IMG/VR virus record: IMGVR_UViG_3300042673_002246
Length of the DNA: 64,000 bases
Direction: 5' to 3' (one strand)
Origin: a virus
The position numbers and the translations under genes were made by a program. Numbering within the stretch: the stretch's first letter is position 1; each line of letters opens with the position of its first letter. Below, piece by piece: positions 2,260 through 30,135 of this stretch. The notes below the pieces were generated by a model. That model was not told where the DNA came from and did not search any database. It was given only the letters and a program-made list of their open reading frames with translations.

Positions 2260-2421
2260 CAACTTATCTAGTAAGTAGATACGAGCGAATCGCATGCACT
2301 TATCTAGTTCATGTGTATTGACTAGATAAGTACCAGTGGTGATACTGACTAGATAAGTACCGAGTGTGATACACGCAATACAAGTAAGCAGAATCATTAT
2401 CAGCACTTATCTAGTCCTTTC

Positions 2422-2643
2422 TCAAACAATTTCTAAGTCAAGTTCAGCGAGTGAACTCAACTGCGAAATGAAGTCAATACCTTCGTTCCACAGTAGATTC
2501 TCGTAGTCCTCACTTGCTTTCTTTGGTGTGTACGAGCCTGTCGTAATTTCGTCCAGTATTCCAGTCAAATAATGAATCGCATGTTTCAGGCTGTCTTGCA
2601 GTTCGCTCAATGCTTCCTGCACTGCTTCATCGGGTGTGTCCAC
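2422..2643 (-). CDS. hypothetical protein
   Basis: GTG start embedded in GAAAGG-ACTAGATAA-GTG. Confidence 0.6.
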   Translation of the reverse strand: MDTPDEAVQEALSELQDSLKHAIHYLTGILDEITTGSYTPKKASEDYENLLWNEGIDFISQLSSLAELDLEIV

Positions 2644-2853
2644 TTATCTAGTCCTTTCACTTATCTAGTAGGTATTGGGAGTGCCTAGCCCTCTCGTAGA
2701 GCGTTAGAAACGGAAAGTGTATCGCTTGGTATTCAGAGCGACACACGCTCGCCGAGAGAGCGTAGGCAAGTCGTACACGGTTCTCCCCAACTGTGTACGC
2801 CAAGAGTGGGGGCTGGCTCTCACCAACCCCCACCCGAGGACTTATCTAGTCAC

Positions 2854-4395
2854 TCAAGCGAGTGGGATTTTGCCCATGTGTCTGCGCCACACATCACGGA
2901 ACATCGCTGGATAGACACTCCGTGCCGTTCCACCGTTGCTCAATGACTTGAGTTGCTTTATCGCTTCCTCAACATGAGGAACAACGATGTAGTTGTTCTT
3001 GCGAGCGTAGGTGAGACACTGCATGGCGAGTGAATCGTGGAAATTGTCGTTCACGCCACACACTCCACCGTCTGTTACCCAAACAAGAGGAGTGCGAGAA
3101 TCTTTGCGATTCTTTACGCCCCACTGAATTGCTGGATAGTCCACGCCGTTGCCGTGTCCGTAGTCAATTCCTTCCACTGTCTCAACCATGCGTCCTTTGT
3201 CGCCAACGACCCATGCGTTATGACCACGACTACCTCTGTCGGAGTAGAGCAACACAGTAGCCCCAGGGGCATGCTCAATAATTTCGGCAATTTGTTCTGT
3301 CGTGAACGACATAGAACCACTTGCGTCAATAACGACCATGCCACCACTGCCACGCACCTTTCGGTCAAACACTCGCATAGCAGGGTCGGTCATCATGCGT
3401 TGCATACGGCGAGGTCTGCGACCTGCGTTCGTTGCAATACGCTTCTTACCGATACCACCTTTGCTGTAGCGAGGCATTGGCATACGCTCAAGACGAAGTT
3501 CGCCCCATTTCGGAGTGCCAGTGGTGATAGCAGACGGAGTTATGTCCTTGAGTGGATTTCCGTCCTTGTCGCCTTCACCTTCCTTGCCTTCACCTTCGTT
3601 GCTGTGGGCTTTGGACTTATCTAGTGAGTTACCTTCGCCCTCGCCACCAGCCTTGCTCTTGCTCGGCTTTGGTTGCTTCCGTTCCTTTGGTGGTGGGAAC
3701 GAAGCGAGCCTGTCCACCCACTCGGCGAGTTGTTCCGTGTAGGTGAATCCGAACGGCGCAAGTCCGTTGTGAACTGTCGTGTTAGCCAAGTGACCAGTGC
3801 GATGAGCCTTCTTCATCTCACGCACGGCTCGCTTGCCAATGTCTAGCAGTTGGTCGCCCCATGCACGATTCACTCTGCGAACGCCGTTGAGAAATTGCTT
3901 GTGTCCAGCACTTCCAGCAGTTCCAACGCACATAGCAACTGCCATTGCCCAGTCGTTAGTTTCTGCGCAACGCTGTCCACTTGCGAGTTCGCTTCCGTCA
4001 GCAAGGTGTTTCTTTACATCTATCCCTGCCTGTTGGCAGAGAAAGTTCACACGAAGTTCCTCAACGACAGTGAGTGCTGTAGCCGAAGCCATTTCACGCT
4101 TGACCCACTCTGCCATTTGTGCCGAATCAGGCGACACCTTTGCGTGCATGAGTTCGTGCGCACGAATCGCCCGAGCCTTGTCGTCATTGTCCGTTGGTGC
4201 GAACATGATTTTGTTAGTCACATCGGTCATTGGCTCGCCACGCACGGCTTGGCAGTGTTCTACTGTCCAAACTCCGTGTGCTTGGTCACGCCGACCGAGA
4301 AGGGTTGCCTCGGCTTTGGCGTTACCCCGAGTGGACTTATCTAGTCCACTCGGGAACGCCTTGCCAGCAACATGCTTGCCAGCAGGTTGAGACAT
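2854..4395 (-). CDS. VWA-domain protein with N-terminal HExxH metallopeptidase-like region (MoxR partner)
   Basis: AHELMH...EELRVN; MIDAS motif VIDASGSM and WVTDGG; translationally coupled to AAA+ gene. Confidence 0.8.
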   Translation of the reverse strand: MSQPAGKHVAGKAFPSGLDKSTRGNAKAEATLLGRRDQAHGVWTVEHCQAVRGEPMTDVTNKIMFAPTDNDDKARAIRAHELMHAKVSPDSAQMAEWVKREMASATALTVVEELRVNFLCQQAGIDVKKHLADGSELASGQRCAETNDWAMAVAMCVGTAGSAGHKQFLNGVRRVNRAWGDQLLDIGKRAVREMKKAHRTGHLANTTVHNGLAPFGFTYTEQLAEWVDRLASFPPPKERKQPKPSKSKAGGEGEGNSLDKSKAHSNEGEGKEGEGDKDGNPLKDITPSAITTGTPKWGELRLERMPMPRYSKGGIGKKRIATNAGRRPRRMQRMMTDPAMRVFDRKVRGSGGMVVIDASGSMSFTTEQIAEIIEHAPGATVLLYSDRGSRGHNAWVVGDKGRMVETVEGIDYGHGNGVDYPAIQWGVKNRKDSRTPLVWVTDGGVCGVNDNFHDSLAMQCLTYARKNNYIVVPHVEEAIKQLKSLSNGGTARSVYPAMFRDVWRRHMGKIPLA

Positions 4396-5123
4396 TATTT
4401 CACCCCGTCAATGGCGAGTGCGTCAAGAATCTGACGGGAACGGTCGCCGAAAGTGAGTGAGCATGCTCGTTCCATGCCAACGCTCGCACGGAGTTTGTCC
4501 AATGCGATGAACGCACGAAGTGAGATACGGTCGTCACCAGCGTCAGCCATGCGAACGGCGTACTTGCGCAAGTCAGGAGACAAGCGAAGCAGTGCGCTCG
4601 GGTGTGGCTCGTTGATACGAATACGAATCGGGAAACGGTCAGCGAGTGCTGTTGGCAACTCACCCATGTTCTCAATGTTCGTGGTCATAATTGCCGAGAA
4701 TCCACCGAGAGGACGAATCACTTCGCCAGTTTCAGGATGCTCAAACGAAGCAGATTCAGGTGAATCCAACATCGCCAAGAGTGTTGCGAACACATCGCCC
4801 GAAGCCTTATCTACTTCGTCCACGATGAGTCGTCCACCCTCTGTTCCGTTGCCCTTCCATGCCTTGAGAGCCGAACCGTCCAGCCACATGAAGCCACCTT
4901 TGCCGTTCGGCATGAAGCCACCTGTAACATCCATGTTCGTCATGTCCTCGGTGCAGACCAGTCGGAACGCACCAGCGTCCACTTTGCCGAGCGTCATGCC
5001 AGCGTAGGTCTTTCCGATACCTGATGGACCGTAGAGGATTACTCGGTCTATCCCTGCGTTGAGGCAGTCCTCAAGTGCTTTCCAGCACTCGGGGAGAGCC
5101 GTTGTTTCTGTCTGTGCAACCAT
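4395..5123 (-). CDS. MoxR/CbbQ-like AAA+ ATPase
   Basis: Walker A GPSGIGKT, Walker B LIVDEVD, sensor TTN, ALADRF arginine finger. Confidence 0.85.
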   Translation of the reverse strand: MVAQTETTALPECWKALEDCLNAGIDRVILYGPSGIGKTYAGMTLGKVDAGAFRLVCTEDMTNMDVTGGFMPNGKGGFMWLDGSALKAWKGNGTEGGRLIVDEVDKASGDVFATLLAMLDSPESASFEHPETGEVIRPLGGFSAIMTTNIENMGELPTALADRFPIRIRINEPHPSALLRLSPDLRKYAVRMADAGDDRISLRAFIALDKLRASVGMERACSLTFGDRSRQILDALAIDGVK

Positions 5124-5167
5124 TGGTATTTCTCCGTTTCTAGTAGTTGGGTTGGTTGTCGTGTACC

Positions 5168-5196
5168 ACTGTAGCGACCCGACAGCAGATTTATCT
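5168..5196 (-). promoter_or_regulatory. phage promoter AGATAAATCTGC-N11-TACAGT
   Basis: Member of 20-copy fixed-spacing class; upstream of AAA+ gene. Confidence 0.7.
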
Positions 5197-5311
5197 CGCC
5201 ACTTATCTAGTTAGTTCATACCACTTATCTAGTCAGTCCACTTATCTAGTTAGTTTCACTCGGACACTTATCTAGTTGGTTCCAGCCACTCGGTAATCGT
5301 TCGGCAACTTG

Positions 5312-5430: not shown

Positions 5431-5910
5431 TTAGTCAGGTCGCTTGGCGATAGAGATTCGGTACAAGCCACGCTTGACCTTGATGAACTCTGGAGTTTCG
5501 TTCACGAACCCGAGTGTCGTCTGATACGAGAATCCACACTGCTCAACCAGTTGCTCGGTGGTGAACTCTTTACCGTCTTGGGTCTTTGCCCACTCCATAA
5601 ACGCACCCCATTTGTCCTTGCGTTTTTCAGGCTTCTGCATTGCTTCCCTCTGGACTTCCTTGCCACAGTATGTCTGAATAATGTGGTCGGCGATGTGGGG
5701 AAGCACGGAGTAAGAGTTCAGGTAAGAAAGCACATTTTTGCTTCCACCTTCCCTTTGCCATAATTGCAGTACATGTAGCCCACGAATCAGTTCGCTGGCA
5801 TTGGACGCTTGTTCTTTGGGAATCCGATACATCGTTCCGAATTCTTTTTCCATTTCCTTCCACATCTCTTTGTGGATTCCGTCAATGAATTCATCAGTCA
5901 GTTTTTTCAT
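5431..5910 (-). CDS. hypothetical protein with C-terminal winged-helix-like segment
   Basis: EFTTEQLVEQCGFSYQT...FIKVKRGLYRI; class promoter at 5956-5984. Confidence 0.6.
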   Translation of the reverse strand: MKKLTDEFIDGIHKEMWKEMEKEFGTMYRIPKEQASNASELIRGLHVLQLWQREGGSKNVLSYLNSYSVLPHIADHIIQTYCGKEVQREAMQKPEKRKDKWGAFMEWAKTQDGKEFTTEQLVEQCGFSYQTTLGFVNETPEFIKVKRGLYRISIAKRPD

Positions 5911-6274
5911 GGCTACCTTTCTAGCGGAACTTTATCCCGACTTGCCCGTCACTCCAGATTATCTTTTGGTAGGCAGACTTATCTGGTACGGCAACGCAAG
6001 AAAGTTATTTTTTTGACCACCTGACATCGAGGGCACTTCCTTTCCACCACCGTCAATTAGATTCACCACCCCCCGGGAATTAAATTTGTCAAATTTTTCA
6101 TTTTTTTGCACGTTCTGGCGGCCGGCTGCGGCGGCTCTGGATTTCTGGATTTTTTGGCAGCGAAACGCGGGGCTTACATGGTGAATCGGGTGCATAAAGA
6201 AAGAGGGTGGGTTTGACCCCACCCCCTGACTTATCTAGTTAGTTATCGGACTTATCTAGTAACTAGATAAGTGG

Positions 6275-7561: not shown

Positions 7562-7590
7562 ACTGTATCTATTAGTAAGCAGACTTATCT
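7562..7590 (-). promoter_or_regulatory. phage promoter AGATAAGTCTGC-N11-TACAGT
   Basis: Fixed-spacing class member. Confidence 0.7.
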
Positions 7591-7638
7591 AGTGAGTATG
7601 GGTGGGGTGTCCACTCCCCACCCATTTCACATCAGGCA

Positions 7639-7863
7639 TTATTTTGCAATAATGTCTTGGGCGTTCACTTTCATCGCTTCGCACAACAATAGAAATGTCG
7701 TCATGCTTGGCGAGAAATGTCCGTTCTCAATGCGATTCACCGTTTTACGGTCAATGCCAGCCTTATTCGCCAGCGTTTCTTGTGACCACTCACGCTCAAG
7801 TCTTTCGTTCTTGAGTCGCTCTGCGATTCGCATTGTCTTTTTCTCAATGGCTGTAAGTGCCAT
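7639..7863 (-). CDS. XRE/Cro-C1 family HTH transcriptional regulator
   Basis: LKNERLEREWSQETLANKAGIDRKTVNRIENGHFSPS. Confidence 0.85.
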   Translation of the reverse strand: MALTAIEKKTMRIAERLKNERLEREWSQETLANKAGIDRKTVNRIENGHFSPSMTTFLLLCEAMKVNAQDIIAK

Positions 7864-8665: not shown

Positions 8666-8943
8666 GCTCGCCCTTTCGTCTAGTAGTGGTACGACCCACT
8701 CTAGCCCCACACCAGCAGATTTATCAACCTGACTTATCTAGTCAGCATGTTCTTCCACCACCGTCAATGTCTTGATGTGTTCTCAACCCGACCCGACTTT
8801 CACCCGACCCACCCGTGAGCCGACCCAACTTCTTGCCGACCACCCCGAACCAGCCCCACCCCATCACTTACCGTGTAAGCCCCGCGTCCCACTGTTTAGC
8901 CGGGGCTCAAAGGGTCGAGCTGGTTTAATTTGGTTGGACTTAT

Positions 8944-10279: not shown

Positions 10280-10615
10280 TTTCTTCCCCTTTGGTTTAGT
10301 AGGTGATTACACGATACATGTGTACGAGCAGACTTATCTAGTAATCCTTTCCACCACCGTCAAACAGTTAGAGCCAGCAAACGACATTCCCCCGACACGC
10401 CCGAACTTTGCGCACTTTTCCCCGACCACCCCCGTTGCTCGCAAAAAAATCCATTTTTTATCACTTCCCGTGTGAGCCCCGGCTCATGGTCGGGGCGCGG
10501 GGCTTCCATCGTCGGAAGCGAACTTATCTAGTAAGTATTCGGGTCGGCACTTATCTAGTAAGTATCCAGCCAGCCCGACCCACCGTTGGCAAGTGGGTCA
10601 GACTGACTAGATAAG

Positions 10616-11390: not shown

Positions 11391-11485
11391 TGTTCTACCC
11401 CCTTCGGGTCTAGGTATTTATTACGATTTCATCGTAATAGTGGGTGGGCAGACTTATCTAGTAAGTCCACCCACCCACTGAACGA

Positions 11486-11896: not shown

Positions 11897-12327
11897 TGGT
11901 TTAGTCTCCTTTGTGTTGGGTGGTGGCTTGCGCACCACCCTACACCCGTGAGAGCAGATTTACCAACATCGCTAGACAGATTTCTGAACTTGCCCCCGAC
12001 ACGCCCGATTTCCACTTGCCCCCGACCACCCCGTGCGCCCATTATTCTTGCCCTATGCGCCCTTTCCTTGTAAGCCCCGGCAGCCAGCCCTTCCAACGGG
12101 GCTCAGAAGGTTGGATAGAGGAAAGGCTGGCACTTATCTATGAAATGACAGCCGAAGCGAACAGACTGATAGCAATAGCCGAAGCAAGCAACGCCGAAGC
12201 GAAAGCCCTGCTCGCTCGTAGTCGCTTCTCGCTCGTCAGGGACTTATCTAGTTAGATAAGTGAAACGGGTGGCTCACCATTTCTGGCAAGCCACCCGTTA
12301 CTTTCGGTGGTTTAGTGGGAAAGGGGG

Positions 12328-12753: not shown

Positions 12754-13076
12754 TATTGCTCTCCTTGTTCGGGGTCTAGTTGGTATCCGAACACCACCCA
12801 CGCTACGAACACGACAGCAGACTTATCTCCACTTATCTAGTCAGTTCAGTTTCCTTTCCACCACCGTCAATAAGTTGAGGACAGATGTTGGTCGCCGTTT
12901 CTTTCAGCGCAAACTTTCGCCCGACCACCCCGAAGCGCACTCACTTCGCTTCACTCGCCTGCTTACCGTGTAAGCCCCGTGGTTTTTTGTTTTATTGAGC
13001 GAAGCGGGGCTCAAACCGTTGAGTGAGTGTTTGGCAACTTATCTAGTGAGTGTGTGTGGACTTCGGACTTATCTAG

Positions 13077-13376: not shown

Positions 13377-13637
13377 CAGTAACCCCCTGTATTTGGTTTC
13401 TCCAACTCTAACTCGTATCGGGCAGATTTATCTGACTTTCTCCCGACCACCCCGACGCTCCAATAAACGCAATAAACGCAACGCTACGCAGGGAGCCCCG
13501 GCTCCTCGCAGGCCGTGCTCGCCACCATGCTCGCAGGACTTATCTAGTTAGATAGATAAGTGTCGGCAATGGAATAAGCCCGACACACTCTCGCAAGTAT
13601 GTCGGGCTCGTCCGTGTCGGATGAGACGTGCTAGGTA

Positions 13638-13934: not shown

Positions 13935-14004
13935 TAGTAACCCCCTGTGTGTTGTGTGATTAGGACAAGTACCACGATAGTACCTGCCGTGCAGACTTAT
14001 CTAG

Positions 14005-14286: not shown

Positions 14287-14737
14287 AACTCTTACCTCGC
14301 TTAGTGATTGGATTAGTTCCTACTGATTACGGTATGGCGCAGTGGGCAGACTTATCTAATTAGTTCCACCCTCACTCTCGGCACTTGCCCCCGACCACCC
14401 CGACGCTCCACACCTGCTCGCTTGCGTTGGAAGCCCCGGGTTTCGCCGACTTCTGCGGGGCTTACAAGGTGCGAGCCGTTGGCTGGCATACGGGTATGTC
14501 GGGGGGAAGTTCGGCTCTTGCTCGGAGTGACTTCGTGGCTAGCGCACACGGCTATCGCCGTGCTTGCTCTCGGAGTGAACGCCTGACCGTCACGGTGGAG
14601 TTCGGTGCTTGCGTGAACTGACTAGATAAGTCGTATCGCTTGCGTGACGATGAACTAACTAGATAAGTCCATAAACGACTAAGCCCACCACGCAGGGGGT
14701 GCGTGGTGGGCTAGTCGGCTTGACCGAACGAACTTAT

Positions 14738-15178
14738 CTAGTTCGTATTCTTTCGTGCCTTGGCGAACAAGTTGTGTACTGCGTCAGCGAGCGAGCCTCT
14801 CGCTTGACCTTCATCGGTAACAACGCTGTCTGGCTCATCGGAGAAACGAAGCACACTCGCCACACTTTGACGGCTTGCCAAGACGAACAAGCGAACACGC
14901 CTACGCTGTGGGTGCTGGCTCGGTGCTACTTCCTCATCATCGTCATCGGTGATAGGTGAAGCCCAACCACAAGTGACCAATGCGATGAAGTCCGAAGCAT
15001 TGGCTACTGCCACGCTTTCGTCACTTTCTAGGAGTTCATACACATCGCCGTGTGTTCCAGCAATAGCGTACTCGCCGTACTTCGTGACGGAGTAAAGTTG
15101 GGCTTGACTAATCTCATAGCCAAGTTTGGTGTCGTTGAGACTTTGCTCAACTTCGGTGGCTAGGTCTATGGCTTTCAT
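14738..15178 (-). CDS. hypothetical protein
   Basis: AAAGGGG SD; class promoter at 15214-15242. Confidence 0.65.
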   Translation of the reverse strand: MKAIDLATEVEQSLNDTKLGYEISQAQLYSVTKYGEYAIAGTHGDVYELLESDESVAVANASDFIALVTCGWASPITDDDDEEVAPSQHPQRRRVRLFVLASRQSVASVLRFSDEPDSVVTDEGQARGSLADAVHNLFAKARKNTN

Positions 15179-15688
15179 TGAGTTCCCCTTTCGTGGGATT
15201 AGTAGATACTCATACGATAACGGTGGGTGGGCAGACTTATCTAGTGAGTTCACACTTATCTAGTTATTCCACACGCCACGAAGCCATTGACCGTTTGCGT
15301 TGCCTGCCACTTCCACCCGACCTACCCGTTGCGCCACGCCCACCCCACCCCCCCGACGCTGGAAGCCCCGCAGGGGCTGACGCCCCCCGGGGCTCCCAAA
15401 GGGAGCGAGGGCTGGGTGGTCACGGGGTAGTCGGCGCGAAGTTCGCTTTCGGTTGCTCTCTCGTGGTCTATGCTTCGCTTCGTGGTGGGCAACATACGGC
15501 TCGTTGCGAGTGGGGCTTCTTATCCTTTCTGACCCTACCCTGCTCAACCGTAATGGGTCTTTCGCTCGTAACGGAGTGGTTTACCGAGACAGCCGAGACT
15601 GCTCACCACAACTAACTAGATAAGTGACTAGATAAGTGGGGGCGTGGTCTTATCTAGTCAGTCATAGAACTAACTAGATAAGTGTCGC

Positions 15689-16314: not shown

Positions 16315-16374
16315 AGTTCCCCTTTCGTTGGTACTGGTAATGGTATCGGCGTGTTGGCAGACTTATCTAGTTAG

Positions 16375-16857: not shown

Positions 16858-17196
16858 CAGTATCCCTTTCGTAGTATCCCTGTAATCAGCATAACCCACA
16901 TCACGCAGACTTATCTAGTATCTATTTACGCTTGCTCGCTCGCTGGACTTATCTAGTAAGTTCACGCCACCTTCACCTTGCGCCCTTCGCCTTCTCTCCC
17001 AGTCGCACTTCTCGCCCGACCCCACCCGACCCACCCACTTGCGCCCGACCCACCCGTTGCGCCTTCACTTCTCCCCCGACCCACCCCGTGTGGGAGCCCC
17101 GCTACCCGACCGGTCTTCCGGGTGACCTGACCGGTTTATACCGGGGCTTCTGTGGGCCATGGCCCGCAGGGGACTGAACCCCTGCGAGCTGCTGGC

Positions 17197-18600: not shown

Positions 18601-18957
18601 GCTCCCCCTCTGGGGGAGACCATCTCCCCCGACAGAACCATCGTACCCAATGTGGGGCAGACTTATCTAGTCAGTTTAGATTTTGCTCACACTTATCTAG
18701 TCGGTTCATGGAACGACACGACACCGACAAAAGAACAGACAGAGAGAGCAGGTGCTCGGTCGGCAGACTTGCCCCCGACCCACCCGAACAGAAGGCGCAG
18801 CACACACTGTGTGAGCCCCGGCTAGGAACGCTTGCAGCGAAAGCTGCGGGGCTTACAGCGTTTTGGTGGCTGTCGAAACAGCCATGCCATCGGGGTAGTC
18901 GGCAGAAAGTGGAAAAAAGATTTGCTTTTTTATTGCAGTACCAGTAATGTGAAGAAC

Positions 18958-19584: not shown

Positions 19585-19598
19585 CTAGATAAGTGTCC

Positions 19599-19627
19599 AG
19601 ATAAATCTGCTCGTCATTTATTACCAT
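19599..19627 (+). promoter_or_regulatory. phage promoter AGATAAATCTGC-N11-TACCAT
   Basis: Plus-strand class member before a plus-strand gene. Confidence 0.7.
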
Positions 19628-20081: not shown

Positions 20082-20096
20082 ACTAGATAAGTAATG

Positions 20097-20140
20097 AAAG
20101 ACCCACTTATCTAGTGAATAACTAGGTGAGTGGGTTTTTT
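20097..20140 (+). terminator. intrinsic terminator built from two inverted motif copies
   Basis: ACCCACTTATCTAGT-GAATA-ACTAGGTGAGTGGGT followed by a T run. Confidence 0.65.
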
Positions 20141-20320
20141 CGTATGCGTAACTAACTAGATAAGTGCATTGAGTTGGTTACTGCTACCGCAGCCCCGCCT
20201 TTCGTCGGTTTTTATGACATTGACTTATCTAGTAAATAGAAAAGCCCCCATCAGTTCCTGCGAGGACCGATGGGGGCGATTCGTACTGGGTGGAAATCGG
20301 GGGAAATCACCCAGCGAGCT

Positions 20321-21247
20321 TTAGAGACGTATGTATCCAGTCTCTGCCGGCTGTGTAACTGGCTTGATTGCTGCAACTGTCGTGTTCGTAACACTCTCGC
20401 GACGCAGCTTCATTGAGTCACGCACCTGACGCTTCTGTTCGAGCACATCGACGAGAGCAGCGAGCGATGCGTTCATCTCGCCCTTGCTAGTCGGGGTGTA
20501 CTGTCCGTAGAGGTTAAAGGTGCCGTCCGGCAAGGCTTCCTGGCTCGTAGTGAACTGCGAGAGGTCAAACCCGTAGCGAGTACTCCATTTCCAACGGAAC
20601 GTAAAGAACTCCTCGTTAGCCTTTGCTCCACTGCGCAACAAGACGCGAGAATTTGGGTGCTTGAGGACTTCGAGGAACAGCTCTTCAGTCTCGTTCATTG
20701 GGTACTTGATGACGTGATTCAGAGAGCCAGGCTTTGTTTTGGTTGCCTTCCCCATCCTGGTTGAGGTGACTGTCAACCCTGATTCGACAGCAGACTTGAT
20801 GGTTTGCAGCTTCTCACGAATTTGCTTAACCTTGCGGCCACCAGGGATTGTCAGTGCTCCACCCGTGAAGCGTGCATAGTGCTCAATCTCGCCAGCCTCA
20901 TTAGCGCGTGTGACGATTTCGATGCCTTTTGCAATGCTTCGCAGTGGGCCATTGCCACCACGCTTCTTTGACTTCTTGACGAGGAACCACTCATTCGGAG
21001 AATCGAGAAGTGTCATAATAACAACTTCGATGTTCGTCAATCGTGGGACTGCCTTGCTTGAGGTGCGACCAGTGGCCGACGATGGTGGTGCCATCTTTAC
21101 TGGTAGTGGTGCCATCCCACTAATAACCTTTGCCATTTTGACAATGGTTTGCTGGTCTACGTTAGAGGCACTCGATGTAAGTGTCTCAATGAGTTGTGCC
21201 TGTCCGGCACCGGACGGGGACTTACCCCGATGCTTTGTTGTCGCCAT
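20321..21247 (-). CDS. hypothetical protein
   Basis: 308-aa ORF with AAGGAG SD. Confidence 0.7.
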   Translation of the reverse strand: MATTKHRGKSPSGAGQAQLIETLTSSASNVDQQTIVKMAKVISGMAPLPVKMAPPSSATGRTSSKAVPRLTNIEVVIMTLLDSPNEWFLVKKSKKRGGNGPLRSIAKGIEIVTRANEAGEIEHYARFTGGALTIPGGRKVKQIREKLQTIKSAVESGLTVTSTRMGKATKTKPGSLNHVIKYPMNETEELFLEVLKHPNSRVLLRSGAKANEEFFTFRWKWSTRYGFDLSQFTTSQEALPDGTFNLYGQYTPTSKGEMNASLAALVDVLEQKRQVRDSMKLRRESVTNTTVAAIKPVTQPAETGYIRL

Positions 21248-21440
21248 GGTTGGCTCCTTCTAGTTACTTGTCTCAGGTGGCTTATTGCCACTTGGGGACA
21301 GACTAGGGCTTGCCAATACGAGTTCACAACCTCCAACAAAGATTTTTTTTATGTTGCATGGTGGCGTAAAGATGACTAATATTGCCTCCGACCGATGTGA
21401 AGCGCTCACAAAGGCAAACAAACAACTAGGAGATAGCTAA

Positions 21441-21719
21441 ATGGCTACAAAGAAAAAAGCTGCACCAAAGAAAGCAGCAAAGAAAAAGCCGGCCAAGAAA
21501 ACTGCAAAGAAAGCAGTAAAGAAAGCAGTAAAGAAGAAGCCAGCAAAGAAAGCCGTCAAGAAGGCAACCAAGAAGACAGCAAAGAAAGCAAAGACGGTCA
21601 AGAAGGCTGCCAAGAAGGCAGTTCGGATGCCAGCTCCTGCTCGCAAGAAGCTAAAGAAAGCTATTGCTAATAACTCATCAATTATCGACGGTCCAATCGT
21701 CGACAACGCGCAGAAGTAA
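21441..21719 (+). CDS. histone H1-like Lys/Ala-rich DNA-binding protein
   Basis: KKAA/KKPA/KKAV repeats; AGGAG SD. Confidence 0.7.
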   Translation: MATKKKAAPKKAAKKKPAKKTAKKAVKKAVKKKPAKKAVKKATKKTAKKAKTVKKAAKKAVRMPAPARKKLKKAIANNSSIIDGPIVDNAQK

Positions 21720-21725
21720 TTACGC

Positions 21726-22031
21726 ATGTCTCGCCTGCGAATAGAAAGAACAGAGATGTCTCAAATCGGTGAGCCCTCACAGCCTTCGTCAAAGGCGAAG
21801 ACAAGCACAATCAGCTTCGACGAGTGGCTCCACATCGGTCTAGAAAATGACTGGTGTGGACCACCCGTATGCTCAATACATGACGGTATCCCAATGAGCG
21901 AAGCTGAAGAAGAGGAATTTCAGGAAGGTGACCCGTGTGTGCACATCATTCGTTTGTACGAAGATGAAGAGCAAAAGAAGTTGGTAGAAGACTTCCACTC
22001 GCCATCCAATTGGCGTAAACCACTTATCTAG
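21726..22031 (+). CDS. hypothetical protein
   Basis: ORF; start uncertain. Confidence 0.55.
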   Translation: MSRLRIERTEMSQIGEPSQPSSKAKTSTISFDEWLHIGLENDWCGPPVCSIHDGIPMSEAEEEEFQEGDPCVHIIRLYEDEEQKKLVEDFHSPSNWRKPLI

Positions 22032-22208
22032 TTAAGTTCACCCACAGCACTTATAACGGCCACGACGAGGTGGTCTTTGGCTTGTTTTGGCTTCTGATAC
22101 AGGAACAGCACGACGAGTGAAATTTGGTGCTTCTGTTTCCTGCTCTTGTTTTTTCTTTTTAGCCATACCCTATTTTCTCATAGGGAAGCAGCTCTATGGT
22201 GGAAGCGC

Positions 22209-22415
22209 CTAGAACAGGGCTATTTGGATACCACCAGTATCTTCTACTTGTTTGCAGTAGTTGTGCTTGTATTCGTGAAGCTCGTCAATAACTTCGGAAA
22301 TTGTTGTCCCCTTGGCTTTAAGCCAAACAACAGCTTTACGTTCGCTAATCGAATCTTGTGGGCGCAACGGTAGACCACATACGCAACACGTGAACAACGG
22401 TGGGAGTGAAGCCAT
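22209..22415 (-). CDS. hypothetical Zn-binding protein
   Basis: CCVC...HNYC. Confidence 0.5.
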   Translation of the reverse strand: MASLPPLFTCCVCGLPLRPQDSISERKAVVWLKAKGTTISEVIDELHEYKHNYCKQVEDTGGIQIALF

Positions 22416-22421
22416 AATCTA

Positions 22422-22619
22422 TTACCACTTTCCTACTGGGCATTCAGCCTCAATTAGTCTTGTTTTTAAATGCATGAAGCAACCACACACAGCGCACTGC
22501 TGCGTTTGGCGCAAGAATTCAGGGCATGCCTTGCAGATAGCGAAGCGCTCCTGTTGTTTCTTTTCGGTCGTGTAATTCTGTCGGCGCAGCAAGTGCCAGG
22601 GCATGTTTCGTCGTCTCAT
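22422..22619 (-). CDS. small Cys-rich protein (DUF6171-like)
   Basis: RFAICKACP...CAVCGCFM..KT...AECPVGKW. Confidence 0.55.
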   Translation of the reverse strand: MRRRNMPWHLLRRQNYTTEKKQQERFAICKACPEFLRQTQQCAVCGCFMHLKTRLIEAECPVGKW

Positions 22620-22873
22620 AACTTAATCCCGACCACCCCGTGCCTTGCTATCAAATTTTAAAAATCCGTACAGAACTAGCAAGAGCAGCACGGAAACAAT
22701 AACGCTGTTGGTATCCATGGACCCATGATAGCGATTTTCTCGCTTTTCATCAAGCTCACTGATAAACCTGCTTTCCTCGACTTAGGATTCACATCGCAGA
22801 CCGGCAGGGCTCACACTCTCCTTTCGGTATCCAACACACGTGAGCCTTGTCGGTCCTCATTTTTATCTGTACA

Positions 22874-24811
22874 ATGTCCATCGTGAAGTTATTTTTAGAC
22901 CACAACGAAATAATTCTTGATTTTCCATTTGATGCCGGCCAGGTTGAGGAAATAAAACGCATATCAGGTGCAAGGTGGGACAAGATTGGCCGTGTGTGGC
23001 GCTTACCAATTACGGCTATCAATGAAGGTCGTGAGTTTGCATTGCGTCATAACTTTGAGGTCACTGTCGATGCTCTAAAGTTCTCCGTACCAATACCTGC
23101 TATAGGGCGCACCGGTGCTCGTGTGTATGTCGATAATGGTATGGCGGTTATCCGTGTGCCTTATGAGCGAGTAATCATTAAGGCTATTAAACAAATACCT
23201 GGCATTACATGGGATAGCAAAATGCTTGCATGGAAAGCCCCCCTTACATCGATTACAAATATCATTACGTGGGCCAAATCTTTCGGCGTTACCGTAGACA
23301 ATGAGCTAATGGACATGGCTGTACAAGTAGAGACAGAGATGACTGAATTGATACAGGCATCACGCTCGGTAGACGCAGAGATACAGATACCTGAACTACA
23401 AGGCGCACTGCTGCCGTATCAGAAAGCTGGAGTTTCGTACGCTGCAAGAGCCCGTAGGACATTTATCGCTGACGACATGGGTCTCGGAAAGACACTGCAG
23501 GCGATGTCCACGCTCGAATACGTTCACGACAGTTACCCAGCAGTCGTTGTATGTCCACCAAGTCTCGTGCTTAACTGGGCGAGTGAATATTCGAAGTGGT
23601 ATCCACATCGCAAGGTGGCCACTGTGACGAACCGTAAGTCATTCCCTGACGCAGGCACATATGACGTTGTGGTAGTTGGATACAGCAATATCGCTACATG
23701 GGAGAAGCAACTATCCAAACATCGCTCGTACGTATGGGATGAAAGCCACTATCTAAAAACGCCCACCTCGCAGAGAACGAAAGCAGCAGTCAAGATAGCT
23801 CGTAGCGCACCAAAAGAAGGTCTCGTATTGTGTCTCACGGGAACACCCGTAACGAACAGGCCGAACGAATACGCAAGCCAACTTGATGTACTGGGTCGCC
23901 TCAAGGACTTTGGTGGGTTGTGGGGTTTCTATCGACGCTATTGCGCTGCATACCAAGACAGTTTTGGTCAGTGGAATATCAGTGGACACTCACACCTAGA
24001 CGAACTCAATGACAGGCTTCGTGGCACTTGCTACATACGCCGTACGAAAGACCAAGTGTTATCGGAGTTGCCACCCGTAGTCCATAGCAAATTGCTGGTA
24101 GAGGGCTCATCACAAGCGATGAAAGAATACAAGAAAGCAGAGAACGACATTATTCTCTACATCGCAGAGCGAGCCCGACAACTCGCCATAGAGCAGGGCA
24201 AGTCACAGCACGGCGCTGCCATATCAGCAATGATTAGGGCAGAAGCGAACGAACATTTAGTCCGTCTGTCGGTGCTTCGCCGTCTTGCTGCGAAAGCAAA
24301 GATGGAAGTCGCTCATGAGTGGATTACTGAACGTATAGAGGCCGGCCGTAAGGTCGTTGTCGCTGCACACCATCGAGACATCGTTGACGAAATCGCCCGT
24401 AAGTATGGAGACCTACGTATTCAGGGTGGAATGAAGGTTGAGGAAGTAGAGGAGAATAAACGCAAGTTTCAGCAGTTAACCGTAGATAAAGCACCCGTAA
24501 TCGTGTTATCTATCCAGGCTGCCAAAACTGGACACACACTCACTGCGTCAGAGGAGTGTTTATTCATAGAACTTCCGTGGACACCAGCAGACGTAGACCA
24601 GACATACTCACGCCTACATCGCATCGGACAACAAGGAAGCGTGACGGCAACTTATCTATTAACTAAAGACACCATTGATGAGGAGATTTATCAACTCATC
24701 GAGCGAAAGCGTTCGGTGGTAAATGCGTCAGTAGAAGGTGGGGAGTTCGCTAACGAGGATAGTGCCGTGCAACTTATTCTGAATTTACTCGGTAAAGCAG
24801 AACAGAACTAA
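22874..24811 (+). CDS. SNF2-family helicase with tandem HARP-like N-terminal domains
   Basis: DDMGLGKT, WDESH, LTGTP, SRLHRIGQ; two FPFD/VPYE...IPG..WD....W repeats. Confidence 0.85.
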   Translation: MSIVKLFLDHNEIILDFPFDAGQVEEIKRISGARWDKIGRVWRLPITAINEGREFALRHNFEVTVDALKFSVPIPAIGRTGARVYVDNGMAVIRVPYERVIIKAIKQIPGITWDSKMLAWKAPLTSITNIITWAKSFGVTVDNELMDMAVQVETEMTELIQASRSVDAEIQIPELQGALLPYQKAGVSYAARARRTFIADDMGLGKTLQAMSTLEYVHDSYPAVVVCPPSLVLNWASEYSKWYPHRKVATVTNRKSFPDAGTYDVVVVGYSNIATWEKQLSKHRSYVWDESHYLKTPTSQRTKAAVKIARSAPKEGLVLCLTGTPVTNRPNEYASQLDVLGRLKDFGGLWGFYRRYCAAYQDSFGQWNISGHSHLDELNDRLRGTCYIRRTKDQVLSELPPVVHSKLLVEGSSQAMKEYKKAENDIILYIAERARQLAIEQGKSQHGAAISAMIRAEANEHLVRLSVLRRLAAKAKMEVAHEWITERIEAGRKVVVAAHHRDIVDEIARKYGDLRIQGGMKVEEVEENKRKFQQLTVDKAPVIVLSIQAAKTGHTLTASEECLFIELPWTPADVDQTYSRLHRIGQQGSVTATYLLTKDTIDEEIYQLIERKRSVVNASVEGGEFANEDSAVQLILNLLGKAEQN

Positions 24812-25275
24812 TCGGTTTCGGAACTTGTTTCCGACTTACCCGTGGCACCCTGGGTGCGACCGTAAAATATTTCCTCTGCAATTAGTTTGGAATATTTCTT
24901 ACGCAAGCGCCATATTTTCTTGTTCATTTCAGTCATCTCTTGGCTCATTCGAGCTTTGATTATTGCTTTGTCGTCATACACGCCGTGCCCATTAAATAGT
25001 GCGTCATGGATATCTGCGTCCTCAATGATGATGTCTGATATCCAACCGGCACGTTTGTCTATTGCCATCATTAATTCACACAAACCCTCTACGCCGAATT
25101 CATCGTGAATTCGATTTGCGATTATTGAGCAGAAGTGTGAACGATACATATTTCTCGCTTTCTGCGAGTTAGACATGAACTCGGATATGAACAGCGCAAG
25201 TTCTTCCTTTGTCGGCATTTCTTCGCCATCATCACCGGCAAATTCGTAAAAATCGTCTGCGCCGTCGTTATTCAT
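24808..25275 (-). CDS. hypothetical protein
   Basis: ORF with GAGG SD. Confidence 0.6.
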   Translation of the reverse strand: MNNDGADDFYEFAGDDGEEMPTKEELALFISEFMSNSQKARNMYRSHFCSIIANRIHDEFGVEGLCELMMAIDKRAGWISDIIIEDADIHDALFNGHGVYDDKAIIKARMSQEMTEMNKKIWRLRKKYSKLIAEEIFYGRTQGATGKSETSSETD

Positions 25276-25323
25276 CTTGCCTCACTTTTCTATGGGCTTG
25301 ACTAATAATACCCGTACTAGAAG

Positions 25324-26349
25324 TCAGACATTTGTTAATAGATAAGTTTGAGTTTTTAGTTTTGTTCTCGTCACCCATGAGTTGTTGTCCATGGACGCGA
25401 GCGCGCGTTCATCGCGAGAAGCATCTCGGTAGTGGTCGAGATATTCGCCGATGGCGTTATAGATTGACCAGCCGTTGTACCCGTAGTTCTTTGCGTTGTT
25501 TTCGTTTTCATAAATAGCGCGAACTAGCGACAACACGTCATCACGGTTCTTTCTCTGACGCTCTGTGCTATTTGGCTCTATCGGAAATGCTGTATTTAGG
25601 ACTTTGTCAAGAACTTGTGTGCGTGCTGGAACTTTCACTGCCAGTAGTCGTTCGGCAGTAGCAGCAAAGTTGTTTGCCCATTCATTAGATATCGCAAGAA
25701 CTTCATTCGCTTGCTCTATCGCTCTGTCTGCATTACGAGTGTGACGAGCAGTAAATACCCGTCGAGCGCTTTCTATGCCAAGCGTTACGGTATTTTGACA
25801 TACGGCACGAATAGAAGTGTTGGCGAATGTAATTGCCGTCTTTCCATCGTGTCCATTGCGAACAAGTAAGTAGCGCGCTATTTGGTCATTCACGCCAGCA
25901 GGGTCTACGACTATCGCGCCCAAGTCAAGTGAAGCAAAGAAACCTTTTCCATCGTGTAGAACACCGGCGGTATCTACAACTGCGTCTCCTTCGGAAGCAC
26001 CCACGATGCTTAGCGCATAATCCAAACACTCTTTATTCTGCTGAACTACATAACGCGTTCCAACGGTGGCCAAACCGGTGAATGTGCCGTCAATGTTGAC
26101 CCGTACGGTTGCACGACTGTCCGGCACGAGAATAGTTGTGCCATCAGGGTTCCGTAGTGGTTCGCCATTGTCATCGCAAATTGCCACCCGTGTTGTGACT
26201 ACATCGAAGTTCGCCTGTGAAGCTTCGAGCATTGCCTCTGCCGTTTGTAGCCCCTTCATTGGCGTTCCAAGCCTGTGCCACGGGATTTCTCTGTCGGCGT
26301 ATGCCATTCTCGCTGTGCCGTCTTTATTGATTTCTAGTCCGTGTGCCAT
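25324..26349 (-). CDS. DUF932 family phage/plasmid protein
   Basis: MAHGLE...PWHRLG...YLLVRNGHDG...IRAVCQNT...RHT. Confidence 0.85.
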   Translation of the reverse strand: MAHGLEINKDGTARMAYADREIPWHRLGTPMKGLQTAEAMLEASQANFDVVTTRVAICDDNGEPLRNPDGTTILVPDSRATVRVNIDGTFTGLATVGTRYVVQQNKECLDYALSIVGASEGDAVVDTAGVLHDGKGFFASLDLGAIVVDPAGVNDQIARYLLVRNGHDGKTAITFANTSIRAVCQNTVTLGIESARRVFTARHTRNADRAIEQANEVLAISNEWANNFAATAERLLAVKVPARTQVLDKVLNTAFPIEPNSTERQRKNRDDVLSLVRAIYENENNAKNYGYNGWSIYNAIGEYLDHYRDASRDERALASMDNNSWVTRTKLKTQTYLLTNV

Positions 26350-27767: not shown

Positions 27768-28100
27768 ATGAACGAGAACACCTATCGAACAGCAAAGACA
27801 ATTCTCATCGCTATCGCAATAACACTTGCGTCAGTATTCGCATTTGGGTATTTGGAAAGACAGCAAGCAAGAGACAGTGAGTTCTTTTGTGATGGCACAC
27901 CAGTCACTATCAAAGAAGGCGACACTCTCTATTGGATAGCCCGAACAAAGTGTGAAGGCAACACTATGGAAGTGGTGGACAGACTTGTCGCCCTGTACGG
28001 CACGACATTGACTATCGGTGACACCATCTATCTGCCGACACACAACTCCTGTGAGTTGCGTATGACAGACGGTGGTCAAGTAATGGAAGAGTGTGCGTGA
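27768..28100 (+). CDS. membrane-anchored LysM-domain protein (paralog of 13077-13376)
   Basis: TM helix; TIKEGDTLYWIA...LTIGDTIYLP. Confidence 0.75.
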   Translation: MNENTYRTAKTILIAIAITLASVFAFGYLERQQARDSEFFCDGTPVTIKEGDTLYWIARTKCEGNTMEVVDRLVALYGTTLTIGDTIYLPTHNSCELRMTDGGQVMEECA

Positions 28101-28109
28101 TGAACTTAT

Positions 28110-28313
28110 CTAGTTCAGTATCTGTCCAACACTGACAACGAAAACTTCTCCACAGTAAAGCACACGGGCGTACTGTTTATCTGTGTCGTGGTATGAGATG
28201 AACTCTGCTTCCACAGCACCCGTAGTCATTCGGCGTGCCTTGTCTGAAACGATGTGACCGAACGACACTGGTATCAACAGCGTCTGACCTACGGTAAGTC
28301 CTTTGGTAATCAC
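28110..28313 (-). CDS. hypothetical protein
   Basis: Coupled ORF. Confidence 0.5.
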   Translation of the reverse strand: MITKGLTVGQTLLIPVSFGHIVSDKARRMTTGAVEAEFISYHDTDKQYARVLYCGEVFVVSVGQILN

Positions 28314-28498
28314 TAGATGCCGTATGTTCCGAGTTGAGTGCGCTCTGCTTGGCGCAAGACTTCGTAGATTTCGGAAACATGCGCTTCCGTGTGTTCATCA
28401 TCAGCGAACAACCTGACTATCTGTAAGACACACTCCAAGCGAGCAACCTGCTGTGCCGTAAGTGTGATAGTGAGTTCTGCGTTTCGTGCTATTCCCAT
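28313..28498 (-). CDS. hypothetical protein
   Basis: SD; class promoter at 28520-28548. Confidence 0.55.
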   Translation of the reverse strand: MGIARNAELTITLTAQQVARLECVLQIVRLFADDEHTEAHVSEIYEVLRQAERTQLGTYGI

Positions 28499-28546
28499 TG
28501 TGTTCCCCTTTCGGTATTGACCTTAGGGTAGGGCGAGCAGACTTAT

Positions 28547-28954
28547 CTATTTACTATCTGTGACATCACGCCACTGACCATCAACGACCACCTGATAGTG
28601 CGCCCCCGACACTGGCACGAGTTCGCCATTAGCATTGCGTTCATACTTGCCGAAGTTCTCAGTGGAACGCCATGCCCACTCACAGCACGGTGTTTCACTA
28701 TCGCAGGGGTGTGTCCCCTTACCTATCGTCTCTGCCAATGCTGGGAACAGAGTAAGGAACTTCACTATGCAGTCGTGACACAGTATCCAACTACGGCTAC
28801 GGCGATTACTAAACAGTACATCTACCTCATCAGTGAAGCCACCATAGTAACCAAATAGGTCAAATGGTAAATCCCAACCGTTACTAGGTAGGTGCTTTTG
28901 TTCATCGCACTGGACATCGTAGTCACAACCTGAACAGCGAACATGGTTACTCAT
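28547..28954 (-). CDS. hypothetical Cys-rich protein
   Basis: Class promoter at 28964-28992, near-leaderless. Confidence 0.6.
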   Translation of the reverse strand: MSNHVRCSGCDYDVQCDEQKHLPSNGWDLPFDLFGYYGGFTDEVDVLFSNRRSRSWILCHDCIVKFLTLFPALAETIGKGTHPCDSETPCCEWAWRSTENFGKYERNANGELVPVSGAHYQVVVDGQWRDVTDSK

Positions 28955-29016
28955 AACATCTCAACGATAGTCGTATGCGAGCAGACTTATCTAGTACCCG
29001 TAGCACTTGGCGACTT

Positions 29017-29430
29017 CTATGACTGGCGTGTGTTGAGGCGAAGGTAGGCAGAGTAGGCGTAGTTGCGTTGGCGTTGGCGTTCGGCGTGTGCCCTCTCTGC
29101 GTCTGCTGGGGGCATACGGTCTATCTCATCATCAGTGGGTGCGAAGCCTATCTCCCTCTCTGCTTCTAGCATCAGTGACACAAGGCTAAGCGTGTGGGTG
29201 TCTGCGTACTCACCCGTAGCGATGTGGCAACCTTGTTCATCTAAGTCAAGTGCCAACAGTTCGCTTGCTACCTTTGAGATGAATACACCTGTGAGTTTCA
29301 TCTGCGACAGGCGTTGGTGTGTGGTCAGGTGTTCGTTCGCTGTCCTCTTAGACCGAAGCAACTGTGTGTACATACTGTTGCTTGGAACGAAAGCGACAAA
29401 CTCTGATGGGGTTGGCTCTTGTGTTGTCAT
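29017..29430 (-). CDS. hypothetical protein
   Basis: ORF. Confidence 0.5.
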   Translation of the reverse strand: MTTQEPTPSEFVAFVPSNSMYTQLLRSKRTANEHLTTHQRLSQMKLTGVFISKVASELLALDLDEQGCHIATGEYADTHTLSLVSLMLEAEREIGFAPTDDEIDRMPPADAERAHAERQRQRNYAYSAYLRLNTRQS

Positions 29431-30135
29431 CTCATCTCTCTCTTGTGTTTGTGTGTGTCGTGTGTATGCGATGTGTATGAGCGAGGCTCTGCGTGGCTAA
29501 GCCCACACCAGACCCGAAACCCGACAGACCCGACAGTGCTGTTGGTTTTGTTGGCGTGTCGTGTTGCGTGTTGGATTACATCGGGTGTGTGGTCTCTCTC
29601 TCGGCGTGTGTCTTACTGAAACACTTGGATAAATCGTCTTGCTGTTTTTTGGGGTGTCGTATTCGGGTCGTGACTTATCTAGTGAGTTGTGTCGTTTTGT
29701 AATCAGCCAGAAACCATCGGCACACACTGCGAGAGACTGCTGTGTGTCCTCTGCGTGTGTGGACTTGTTGCCGACTACCCCGAGTACCGACACAAATTGC
29801 GAAAAATTGTTCGCAGTGTCGCCTCGCAGCACCTGTCTCTTGTAGCCCCGCGAAACTTTCTCGGTTGAGGCAGGGTGGGTGGGGGAGCAAAATCGCAAAA
29901 AATTCATCCCAGGTTTTTCACTTAAATTTATCCAATGCATACAGCTCGGCCGCCAGTTTGCGGACTTTCTTCCAGTGTCTTGATTGTCTCCCATTTGCCC
30001 CCAGACAGCATGGGATGAGCCCTGTGAAGGACAAATGCATGAATGCCCTGTCTTCGTATGCTTCAATCACGTCCGGTGAATCCGAGTACAAAGCGTCCTG
30101 TGTTTCTTTCACGGTTCAAGCGTATACTGAAATTC

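Follow-up and report, generated by a model that had tools for sequence, protein, structure and literature searches.

A 15-bp asymmetric word repeated along a single gene block of a large phage genome, and its possible role as a regulatory site

Why does a phage genome repeat one short sequence some seventy times within one block of genes and almost nowhere else? The question is raised by the IMG/VR virus record IMGVR_UViG_3300042673_002246 (linear, 133,891 bp). Its positions 459-64458, a stretch of 64,000 nucleotides, are called the window here, and positions refer to the window unless marked as record positions. A first-pass annotation, made from the letters of the window alone, had reported an 11-bp motif with about 70 copies in 2262-20233 and 26563-29683, about ten one-mismatch variants, a single copy in 20300-26500 and none in 30-64 kb, and had likened it to the stoperators of mycobacteriophage L5 and to DNA-uptake sequences. 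The motif is real and strongly selected. It is the core of a longer word, which is confined to one block, mostly points in the direction of the genes, and has lineage-specific counterparts in related phages.

The core CTAGATAAG has 73 exact matches in the window, spanning 2263-29682, where dinucleotide-preserving shuffles give 0.23 expected and a maximum of 2. A weight-matrix scan adds 12 near-variants, of which 10 are inside the block and 2 outside; the sparse stretch does contain just one copy (22023), and the exact scan finds none in 30-64 kb. The earlier counts are thus borne out, and so is the statement that the core genome lacks the motif. Over the whole record there are 74 cores, 73 of them within 27.4 kb and 1 in the remaining ~104 kb, this lone outlier (record 109,729) being intragenic and missing the flanks. 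The reported length needs correction. The 11-mer ACTAGATAAGT exists, with 69 exact copies in the whole record, every one at record 2720-30141, but the aligned copies define a longer asymmetric word of 15 bp, A-C-T-n-A-CTAGATAAG-T (full word ACTnACTAGATAAGT). By exact word and by matrix, the distribution over the record is therefore one block and not uniform, and this block has a guanine-cytosine (GC) content of 50-54%, compared to 42-47% elsewhere in the genome. The same copies with the same spacings recur in independent assemblies from other samples (G001-G003, L231, L242 and L244), which excludes an assembly artefact.

Comparison with close relatives shows that the word is under purifying selection. 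Against G003, which is 94% identical over 20 kb, only 1 of 576 aligned core positions has changed, compared to 6.8% of other intergenic positions and 5.6% of coding positions. Synteny with the block extends to two fragments, G004 and G005, whose proteins share only 35-90% amino-acid identity with those of this genome. Their DNA is mostly unalignable, yet they keep the identical word (31 and 15 cores, respectively) together with the same promoter form. Both also contain overlapping inverted word pairs (ACTTATCTAGATAAGT), as expected for sites that act at the DNA level.

Lineages further away were compared using loci around homologues of two conserved block genes, in a large clade of phages of 145-170 kb. 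At these loci the most frequent 9-mers are lineage-specific relatives of CTAGATAAG, at 25-50 copies per 20 kb: AATAGATAAGT, GGTAGATAAGT, GAGTAGATAAGT, AGAGTAGATAAC, TAATAGATAACT and GGTGTAGGTAAGT, and further GGGGTAGATAAGT, GTGGGATAAC, GGGGGATAAGTC, AAAGGATAATGTA and AATAAAGATAGC. In still more remote lineages there are promoter-like boxes, in only 10-20 copies. The complete genomes G007-G010 each carry their own word in 68-97 copies, in a single GC-raised block of 30-35 kb and almost nowhere outside it, with the words of other lineages at negligible counts. Related phages thus have an equivalent motif, either the same word or a lineage-specific one. We regard this as the decisive result: different words with the same grammar probably mark the recognition site of a phage-specific regulator. 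Purifying selection, retention in unalignable relatives, and lineage variants with equal confinement together support the view that a specific phage factor acts in trans on the word.

The placement of the copies, with genes called heuristically, gives clues as to what such a factor might do. In the block, which is 71% coding and 29% non-coding, 55 of the 73 copies are intergenic, 9 touch a gene edge and 9 are inside genes, so that 64 are non-coding or at a gene edge (P = 1.7e-25). The sense copies inside genes are all in frame 0 (8 of 8; CTA GAT AAG), which is the only stop-free frame. The first-pass annotation described the orientation as mostly that of the local coding strand and the copies as clustered 2-5 deep in intergenic gaps. 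We agree: 62 of 73 copies run in the direction of the local genes (P = 4.5e-10), and intergenic clusters have 2-6 copies (for example 5202-5275, 2263-2414 and 15616-15682). Orientation flips with gene strand inside the block, the copies in 18073-20156 and 26564-27751 for example being on the plus strand. The 11 antisense copies are mostly in inward- or outward-facing pairs, at convergent boundaries or around hairpins. Four other complete genomes show the same placement, orientation and restriction to the open frame.

Along the direction of transcription, the copies occupy four recurring slots. In the first (17 copies) a stop codon is inside the word or at most 12 nt upstream of it, and in the second (about 11-12 copies) the word is just upstream of a strong GC hairpin. 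The third slot is the promoter, and the fourth (4 copies) separates a ribosome-binding site from its GTG start. Where a junction is short (60-70 nt), a single copy serves as the post-stop and promoter copy together.

All promoters described here are predicted from a sequence pattern, not mapped. Eighteen sites match (A/T)GATAA[AG]TCTGC-N11-TAnnnT in the block (5191-28987), and the rest of the record has 3 matches, as chance would give (2.7 expected). For seventeen of the eighteen, a ribosome-binding site and start codon follow 45-70 nt downstream; the remaining site (28987) is 489 nt from the nearest (heuristic) gene call. The exact word forms the -35 region in 9 of the 18 (CTAGATAAGTCTGC) and a one-mismatch word does so in 3 more; in 9 cases a motif copy is found 11-52 nt upstream of the promoter. 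Other lineages have a similar box, AAGTCTGT[AC]C-N9-(TGG)TAnnnT, and the clade-wide form can also be written GGAAGTCTGT[AC]C-N5-GTGGTAnnnT. In G007 ten promoters are fused with the word of that genome in the same way, whereas in G008-G010 a gap of 9-14 nt separates the end of the word from the clade-wide box AAGTCTGT[AC]C downstream. This implies that word and box are separable, as an operator and a promoter would be. A scan of the block for canonical promoters and terminators (TTGACA/TATAAT, E. coli-type) found no excess over shuffles.

The explanation that we prefer, and hold with about as much doubt as belief, is that a lineage-specific regulator of transcription, specified by the phage, uses the copies as oriented operator or roadblock sites and so switches the whole block together, in the manner of stoperators; the binding, the sign of the regulation and its timing we infer from the arrangement just described. 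The word ACTnACTAGATAAGT would be the cis-acting recognition site of this regulator, which would bind single asymmetric sites. At about ten promoters the site itself would be the -35 region of the class (A)GATAA(G/A)TCTGC-N11-TAnnnT, and at about nine more it would be 11-52 nt upstream, and in both positions occupancy would control initiation. The other sense copies (after stops, before hairpins, and between ribosome-binding site and start) would be orientation-dependent roadblocks or boundary elements, by which the block would be switched as one unit, most likely shut off. The L5 repressor works in such a roadblock manner at stoperators. Other temperate phages also disperse the sites of one repressor, namely the C1 operators of P1 and the conserved inverted repeats of phiC31, up to roughly 20 in number; the P1 sites are asymmetric with overlapping inverted pairs, and the phiC31 sites are highly conserved and intergenic. 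Both differ from the system here in being temperate phages with known repressors, and in having far fewer sites and no block confinement.

The analogy with L5 stoperators in the first-pass annotation holds for asymmetry, orientation with transcription, placement at junctions and overlap with the -35 region (PMC6550527). The stoperators of Cluster A mycobacteriophages are short asymmetric sites in many copies, mainly in one orientation and mostly at gene junctions, with one class overlapping the early promoter (PMC6550527, PMC9283540), and stoperators and repressors co-diverge, giving related but distinct words (PMC6550527). In the same way, the word described here is asymmetric (15 bp in 73 copies, the Cluster A sites being 13-14 bp), has one main orientation at gene junctions, overlaps the -35 region of predicted promoters, and is similar but distinct in related phages; the host is probably also an actinobacterium. 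It differs in having 68-97 sites rather than as many as 30 per genome, in their restriction to one block of 27-35 kb (27 of about 162 kb in this phage) rather than spread over the genome, and in the number of promoters that carry a site, which is about ten rather than one.

Several points weigh against this explanation. No recognisable immunity repressor and no integrase were found, unlike in Cluster A, whose temperate phages have such a repressor and an integrase or parABS (Phage_integrase had no match in G000, G001, G008 or G010, in a search whose controls worked), and so the logic of stoperators in temperate phages is not directly transferable. Roadblocks immediately before hairpins seem redundant. 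The copies between ribosome-binding site and start, and the intragenic copy in a hairpin loop, fit a role at the RNA level equally well. The placement statistics rest on our own heuristic gene calls. The word diverges between lineages, but no co-diverging reader was found among the detectable DNA-binding proteins. Six such proteins have DNA-reading residues that are invariant or nearly so where the word changes, and most of the six also occur in word-less lineages. They include the three helix-turn-helix (HTH) candidates of the first-pass annotation (1541-1915, 7639-7863 and 5431-5910), which are poor candidates for the lineage-specific reader because these residues are essentially constant across words and because the proteins are also present in lineages with no high-copy word. 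The WhiB-like protein was rejected as its C-terminal basic tail is invariant while the word varies, and the TrmB/MarR-like protein as its DNA-reading residues are unchanged across words. The same applies to a 228-aa protein similar to a small terminase subunit (TerS), whose DNA-reading residues do not track the word. A basic, fast-evolving, winged-helix-like protein of 155 aa looks better by distribution: seven genomes with a word have it (six detected by tblastn and G015 by profile search), and in two genomes without one it was not found. It is encoded in G001, in DNA that is not on this contig, about 10 kb to the left of the block. Yet G010 and G015, which have the same word, differ in the presumed recognition helix of this protein. 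The six conserved proteins are better candidates for readers of clade-wide elements, namely the AAGTCTG box, the element TTGACGGTGGTGGAA and the GGGGTGGTCGGG repeats; for the protein at 1541..1915 in particular, the invariant HTH suggests a clade-wide target and not the lineage word.

Screening for presence/absence and for relative divergence picked out only acidic proteins, a thioredoxin, two basic virion-module proteins and a giant protease-ArdC-helicase protein. Look-ups in Pfam, PHROGs, PDB sequences and Atlas found no function for these, and the two virion-module proteins (record 95787-96596 and 61871-62614) and the giant protein are weak leads to the reader. There is also a second version of the regulator model, which we think unlikely: in these large, virulent, actinophage-like myoviruses the word would be a lineage 'barcode' of the accessory block, read by something other than a classical HTH repressor, so that the block is turned on or off as a unit. 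The reader could then be a protein delivered with the virion (for example a module of the giant, probably injected proteins, or a fast-evolving basic head/neck protein) or a phage RNA guide, and competition among co-infecting relatives would drive the diversification of the word. Fast-evolving basic head/neck proteins were found only in word-bearing lineages. If true, the barcode would be a new regulatory principle for lytic phages, apart from prophage immunity.

The main rival to operators and roadblocks is positive control, in which the word would bind an activator or promoter-specificity factor that recruits host RNA polymerase, and non-promoter copies would concentrate this factor on the block. 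The models for this are sigma appropriation in T4 (MotA/AsiA) and activation by WhiB7. The word lies over the -35 region or 9-14 nt upstream of it, in fixed register with TAnnnT, which is the same geometry as in T4 middle promoters (PMC2988021) and WhiB7 promoters (PMC3905903). In T4 middle promoters a conserved box (the MotA box, at -30) likewise stands in for the -35 element, at constant spacing from TAnnnT (PMC2988021). WhiB7 is a Wbl protein bound to region 4 of sigma-A and to AT-rich DNA next to the -35 element (PMC3905903, PMC10245118); the word is also AT-rich amid GC-richer DNA, where it adjoins or overlaps the -35 region, and among the phage proteins are a Wbl protein and one with a sigma region-4-like HTH. 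Furthermore, an isolated copy of the word is found in syntenic position upstream of whiB in four lineages, and the block has no excess of canonical TTGACA/TATAAT promoters. Despite this, we consider positive control unlikely. MotA boxes are found only at promoters, whereas about 75% of the copies here have no -10 element at the right distance, and positive control leaves the orientation bias and the post-stop placement unexplained. The WhiB-like and sigma4-like proteins are invariant while the word varies, and binding by an AT-hook would not enforce an exact 15-bp word. The MotA DNA-binding domain (PF09158) had no match in 5 genomes, and since the control genomes were likewise blank this does not show its absence.

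An RNA-level signal would explain a different part of the data. The word could be read in transcripts, as an endoribonuclease site, a site for a translational repressor, or a termination or antitermination site that marks the ends of cistrons. This would account for the strong co-orientation with genes, for the 17 copies at stop codons and the 11-12 just before strong hairpins, for the 4 copies that fill the spacer between ribosome-binding site and GTG, and for the copy in the loop of a hairpin with a 9-bp stem inside a gene. We nevertheless find it improbable. Nine to ten copies are promoter -35 regions, which would be transcribed only by read-through, 11 of 73 are antisense, and the overlapping inverted pairs and the inward-facing pairs suggest that the double strand is recognised. 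No Rfam family matched in the block except for a tRNA, and no co-varying RNA-binding protein was found.

The copies could also be maintained mainly as recombination sites, as borders of mobile promoter and terminator cassettes by which accessory genes are shuffled, and kept uniform by concerted evolution and not by a trans-acting reader. A precedent is provided by the PeSLs of T4-type phages, which are units of promoter and stem-loop that flank small accessory genes in a hyperplastic region with repeat-bounded indels (PMC2839356, PMC4122927). The block resembles them in its grammar (stop, motif, hairpin, then motif and promoter), in its poorly conserved genes and in one repeat-bounded indel. 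At the junction where this phage has a single copy, the 98.5%-identical G001 has two copies of a 22-bp stretch containing the word, which flank an insert of 883 bp with two open reading frames (ORFs). This is the single clear case, and other replacements between close relatives abut motif copies. Gene content in the block turns over fast, many genes having no orthologue in other lineages. However, PeSLs consist of host-type early promoters and terminators and have no lineage-specific 15-bp word, whereas most copies here are not promoters and the word changes cleanly between lineages. A repeat of 15 bp is short for homology-driven conversion; a word that is constant at 35-90% protein identity and then changes cleanly fits selection by a reader better than drift and conversion; and a further function is indicated by the constant spacing to the -10 element and by the use of one frame within genes. 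As the main reason for the copies, recombination is very improbable. Under the operator and roadblock explanation it would be a by-product, identical copies of 15-22 bp flanking cassettes giving homology for their gain and loss, and the repeats may well mediate such exchange as PeSLs do in T4-type phages (PMC2839356, PMC4122927).

Finally, a role in DNA handling (packaging, an ejection stop, Chi-like protection, an uptake-type sequence, or site-specific nicking or modification) is extremely improbable: it would suit the confinement to one contiguous block, the giant and probably injected proteins with ArdC, UvrD-helicase and ParB-like parts, and a nucleotide-modification-associated domain beside the block, but the orientation switches with gene strand and is not fixed to a genome end, the copies are at gene boundaries and in promoter register, and the contigs of relatives end in overlaps of 121-146 bp that resemble those of circular assembly and so give no physical end. 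The earlier analogy with DNA-uptake sequences is therefore not upheld, since the copies avoid coding DNA and flip with gene strand, and we found nothing in support of coating, protection or DNA-entry handling. Two readings as a promoter element were also rejected. As a -10 element the word does not fit in its key positions. A T7-like promoter is suggested by the ACTnACTA of the word, which other lineages lack; no T7-type RNA polymerase (PF00940) was detected, in a search whose controls were also blank and which does not show absence.

To our knowledge, one group of temperate mycobacteriophages is alone in having stoperator-type silencing. The cis grammar of stoperators is found here at 2-3 times the number of sites, confined to a block and with a dedicated promoter class, in a clade of apparently virulent phages of roughly 160 kb with a wide distribution in metagenomes. 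With its natural series of diverged words, at least a dozen, on a conserved architecture, the clade is an unusually clean system in which to look for a new reader, of DNA or of RNA, and for the code of its specificity, and to ask by what means a lytic phage shuts down or insulates a block of host-takeover or anti-defence genes. The indel provides a concrete route from regulatory repeats to cassette exchange. For annotation, the word marks the block and types phage lineages.

The phage is an uncultured myovirus, as its tail sheath shows, and has a capsid of HK97 type, eight tRNAs and giant ORFs of 2205, 2458 and 2954 aa. G001, which is rated complete at 153.9 kb, contains 29.5 kb that are not on this contig, and breaks inside the motif block, from which the full genome is about 162 kb. 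The additional DNA has only one motif copy. Record positions 1-458 have no match in close relatives, whose alignments all start at record position 459, and may be a chimeric contig end. A near-identity DNA search of INPHARED phages gave no relatives, only one tRNA-sized match. By major capsid protein the best cultivated relatives are actinophages (46-49% identity), the nearest being Brevibacterium and Gordonia phages. The region present only in G001 encodes the WhiB-like protein (Pfam Whib, E = 2.5e-15), and whiB serves as an actinophage marker (PMC10914622). From whiB, the capsid relatives, the TAnnnT -10 elements and the lack of enrichment of E. coli-type promoters and terminators, the host is probably an actinobacterium, and a low-GC member of the Actinomycetota would be expected. 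No phage sigma region 2 was found, in a search whose controls worked, and a literature search for the literal word found primers only.

Within the block (genes at 2854-29430) are an AAA_5 ATPase with a 513-aa partner, DUF1281_C/Api92-like, DUF3846 and DUF6011 proteins, an SNF2 helicase and a DUF932 protein. Such families are typical of plasmid leading regions and anti-defence islands, which suggests that this is a host-takeover or anti-defence block. It probably consists of small accessory genes with early or host-takeover roles, the timing being inferred. The motif-poor island has a conserved gene content: a 308-aa basic protein, a lysine/alanine-rich protein of 92 aa, the SNF2 helicase and DUF932. 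The features are collected below.

Table 1. Features of the motif block and candidate reader genes, in window coordinates
Feature	Position	Strand	Remarks
Gene for protein with HA domain and sigma-70 region-4-like HTH	1541..1915	+	Left block edge; HTH invariant across lineages
Left-boundary cluster, 5 copies	2263..2414		2263-, 2299-, 2322+, 2349+, 2406-; downstream of HA+sigma-region-4 gene
Motif block	2263..29682		73 exact cores and 10 near-variants; 2.66 copies per kb
Shine-Dalgarno/motif/start, AAAGGA-CTAGATAA-GTG	2643..2657	-	Likewise at 2406, 6822, 9765
In-frame copy in 513-aa gene	4327..4353	-	Loop of perfect 9-bp stem (CCCGAGTGG ... CCACTCGGG)
Four tandem copies 5267, 5241, 5224, 5202	5168..5275	-	Spacings 26, 17, 22 bp; directly upstream of promoter GAGATAAATCTGC-N11-TACAGT (box 5191) of AAA_5 / 513-aa operon
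Gene for 159-aa protein, winged-helix-like C-terminus	5431..5910	-	C-terminus nearly identical across different-word lineages
Block promoter AGTCTG-N12-TAATCT	5956..5979	-	One-mismatch word CCAGATAAGT
Fused motif-promoter CTAGATAAGTCTGC-N11-TACAGT	7562..7592	-	54 nt upstream of start codon
Gene for Cro/C1-type HTH_3 protein	7639..7863	-	Recognition helix invariant; also in lineages without high-copy word
Copy 14 nt upstream of promoter TTGATAAATCTGC-N11-TAGAGT	8698..8741	-	
Fused motif-promoter CTAGATAAGTCTGC-N11-TATCGT	10311..10341	-	TTGACGGTGGTGGAA precedes
Fused motif-promoter	11431..11461	-	Motif and box in loop between GGGTGGGTGG and CCCACCCAC
Block promoter TTGGTAAATCTGC-N11-TAGGGT	11937..11960	-	Full word missing
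Copy 11 nt upstream of promoter GGAGATAAGTCTGC-N11-TAGCGT	12800..12840	-	
Block promoter TCAGATAAATCTGC-N11-TAGAGT	13405..13428	-	
Compact junction	13974..14004	-	TAA of gene 14005-14286 abuts motif, which is -35 of next promoter (TATCGT)
Block promoter ATTAGATAAGTCTGC-N11-TACCGT	14329..14352	-	One-mismatch word
Inward-facing copies 14622+, 14659+, 14733-	14622..14741		Flank strong GC hairpin, -29 to -34 kcal/mol; motif then terminator-like hairpin, read from either direction
Two copies 15255, 15236	15214..15263	-	Second fused to promoter (TATCGT)
Compact junction	16340..16370	-	Stop, motif, fused promoter (TACCAT)
Two copies 16948, 16910	16888..16956	-	Second fused to promoter (TATGCT)
Two copies 18692, 18662	18640..18700	-	Second fused to promoter (TACGAT)
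Junction: stop, motif, 13 nt, promoter CCAGATAAATCTGC-N11-TACCAT	19585..19627	+	Orientation follows gene strand
Four copies 20083+, 20106-, 20156+, 20224-	20083..20232		Convergent gene boundary; 20083 and 20106 are hairpin arms, T run after
Motif-poor island in block	20321..26349		Sole copy 22023, antisense, inside ORF
Cassette junction	28099..28119	-	Single copy here, core 28105-28113
Block promoter AATAGATAAGTCTGC-N11-TAAGGT	28520..28543	-	One-mismatch word
Fused motif-promoter (TATCGT)	28964..28994	-	

Some of the proteins mentioned above deserve a fuller description. The 92-aa protein (21441-21719, plus strand) has a pI of 11.4 and KKAAKK-type repeats, similar to nucleoid proteins of the histone H1 / Hc1 type, and is encoded beside the 308-aa basic protein. 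The 228-aa protein (44385-45071, minus strand) starts with an HTH of sigma-70 region-4 / HTH_38 type, followed by a coiled coil and then an acidic tail. Its conservation across the clade is high, and it resembles a small terminase subunit rather than a sigma factor. The 2205-aa protein (37396-44013, minus strand) has exonuclease and ParB-like parts, and the 2458-aa protein has no family match. The 2954-aa protein (L009:10948-19812, minus strand) combines prohead protease, ArdC-N, zincin peptidase and UvrD helicase in one fusion; compared with G010 and G015, G008 has an unusually diverged member of this family. The gene for the WhiB-like protein, a 4Fe-4S transcription factor kept in all lineages, is at L126:765-1115 (plus strand) in the G001 region that is off this contig; about 300 nt upstream of it are the isolated lineage word in synteny and three GGGGTAAGGCA repeats.

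It is worth adding that the block contains other repeats. The invariant element TTGACGGTGGTGGAA is found at about 10345-10365, 8750-8770, 12850-12870 and 6010-6030, and in reverse complement at about 1925-1945. Several block promoters have it 20-45 nt upstream of them, and it also immediately follows the HA+sigma4 gene. The element is co-oriented by strand and block-specific, occurs also in G006 and G011-G014, and is kept even in lineages that have no high-copy word. As a promoter it was rejected for want of a consistent -10 partner, and as a code for a C-terminal peptide because it is located in intergenic DNA. A second repeat, GGGGTGGTCGGG-nn-AAGT, is present in 1-3 copies 60-150 nt upstream of block promoters, in long intergenic regions (for example 5290-5360, 8790-8870, 10380-10450, 12000-12060, 12900-12930, 15290-15340 and 16970-17060). 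Lastly, arms of the form AGCCCCG ... CGGGGCT, 15-45 nt apart and followed by (T/C)(A/C)CA(C/A)GG, are found between the post-stop copy and the promoter region, for example at 8870-8910, 10460-10500, 12960-13010 and 12060-12110.

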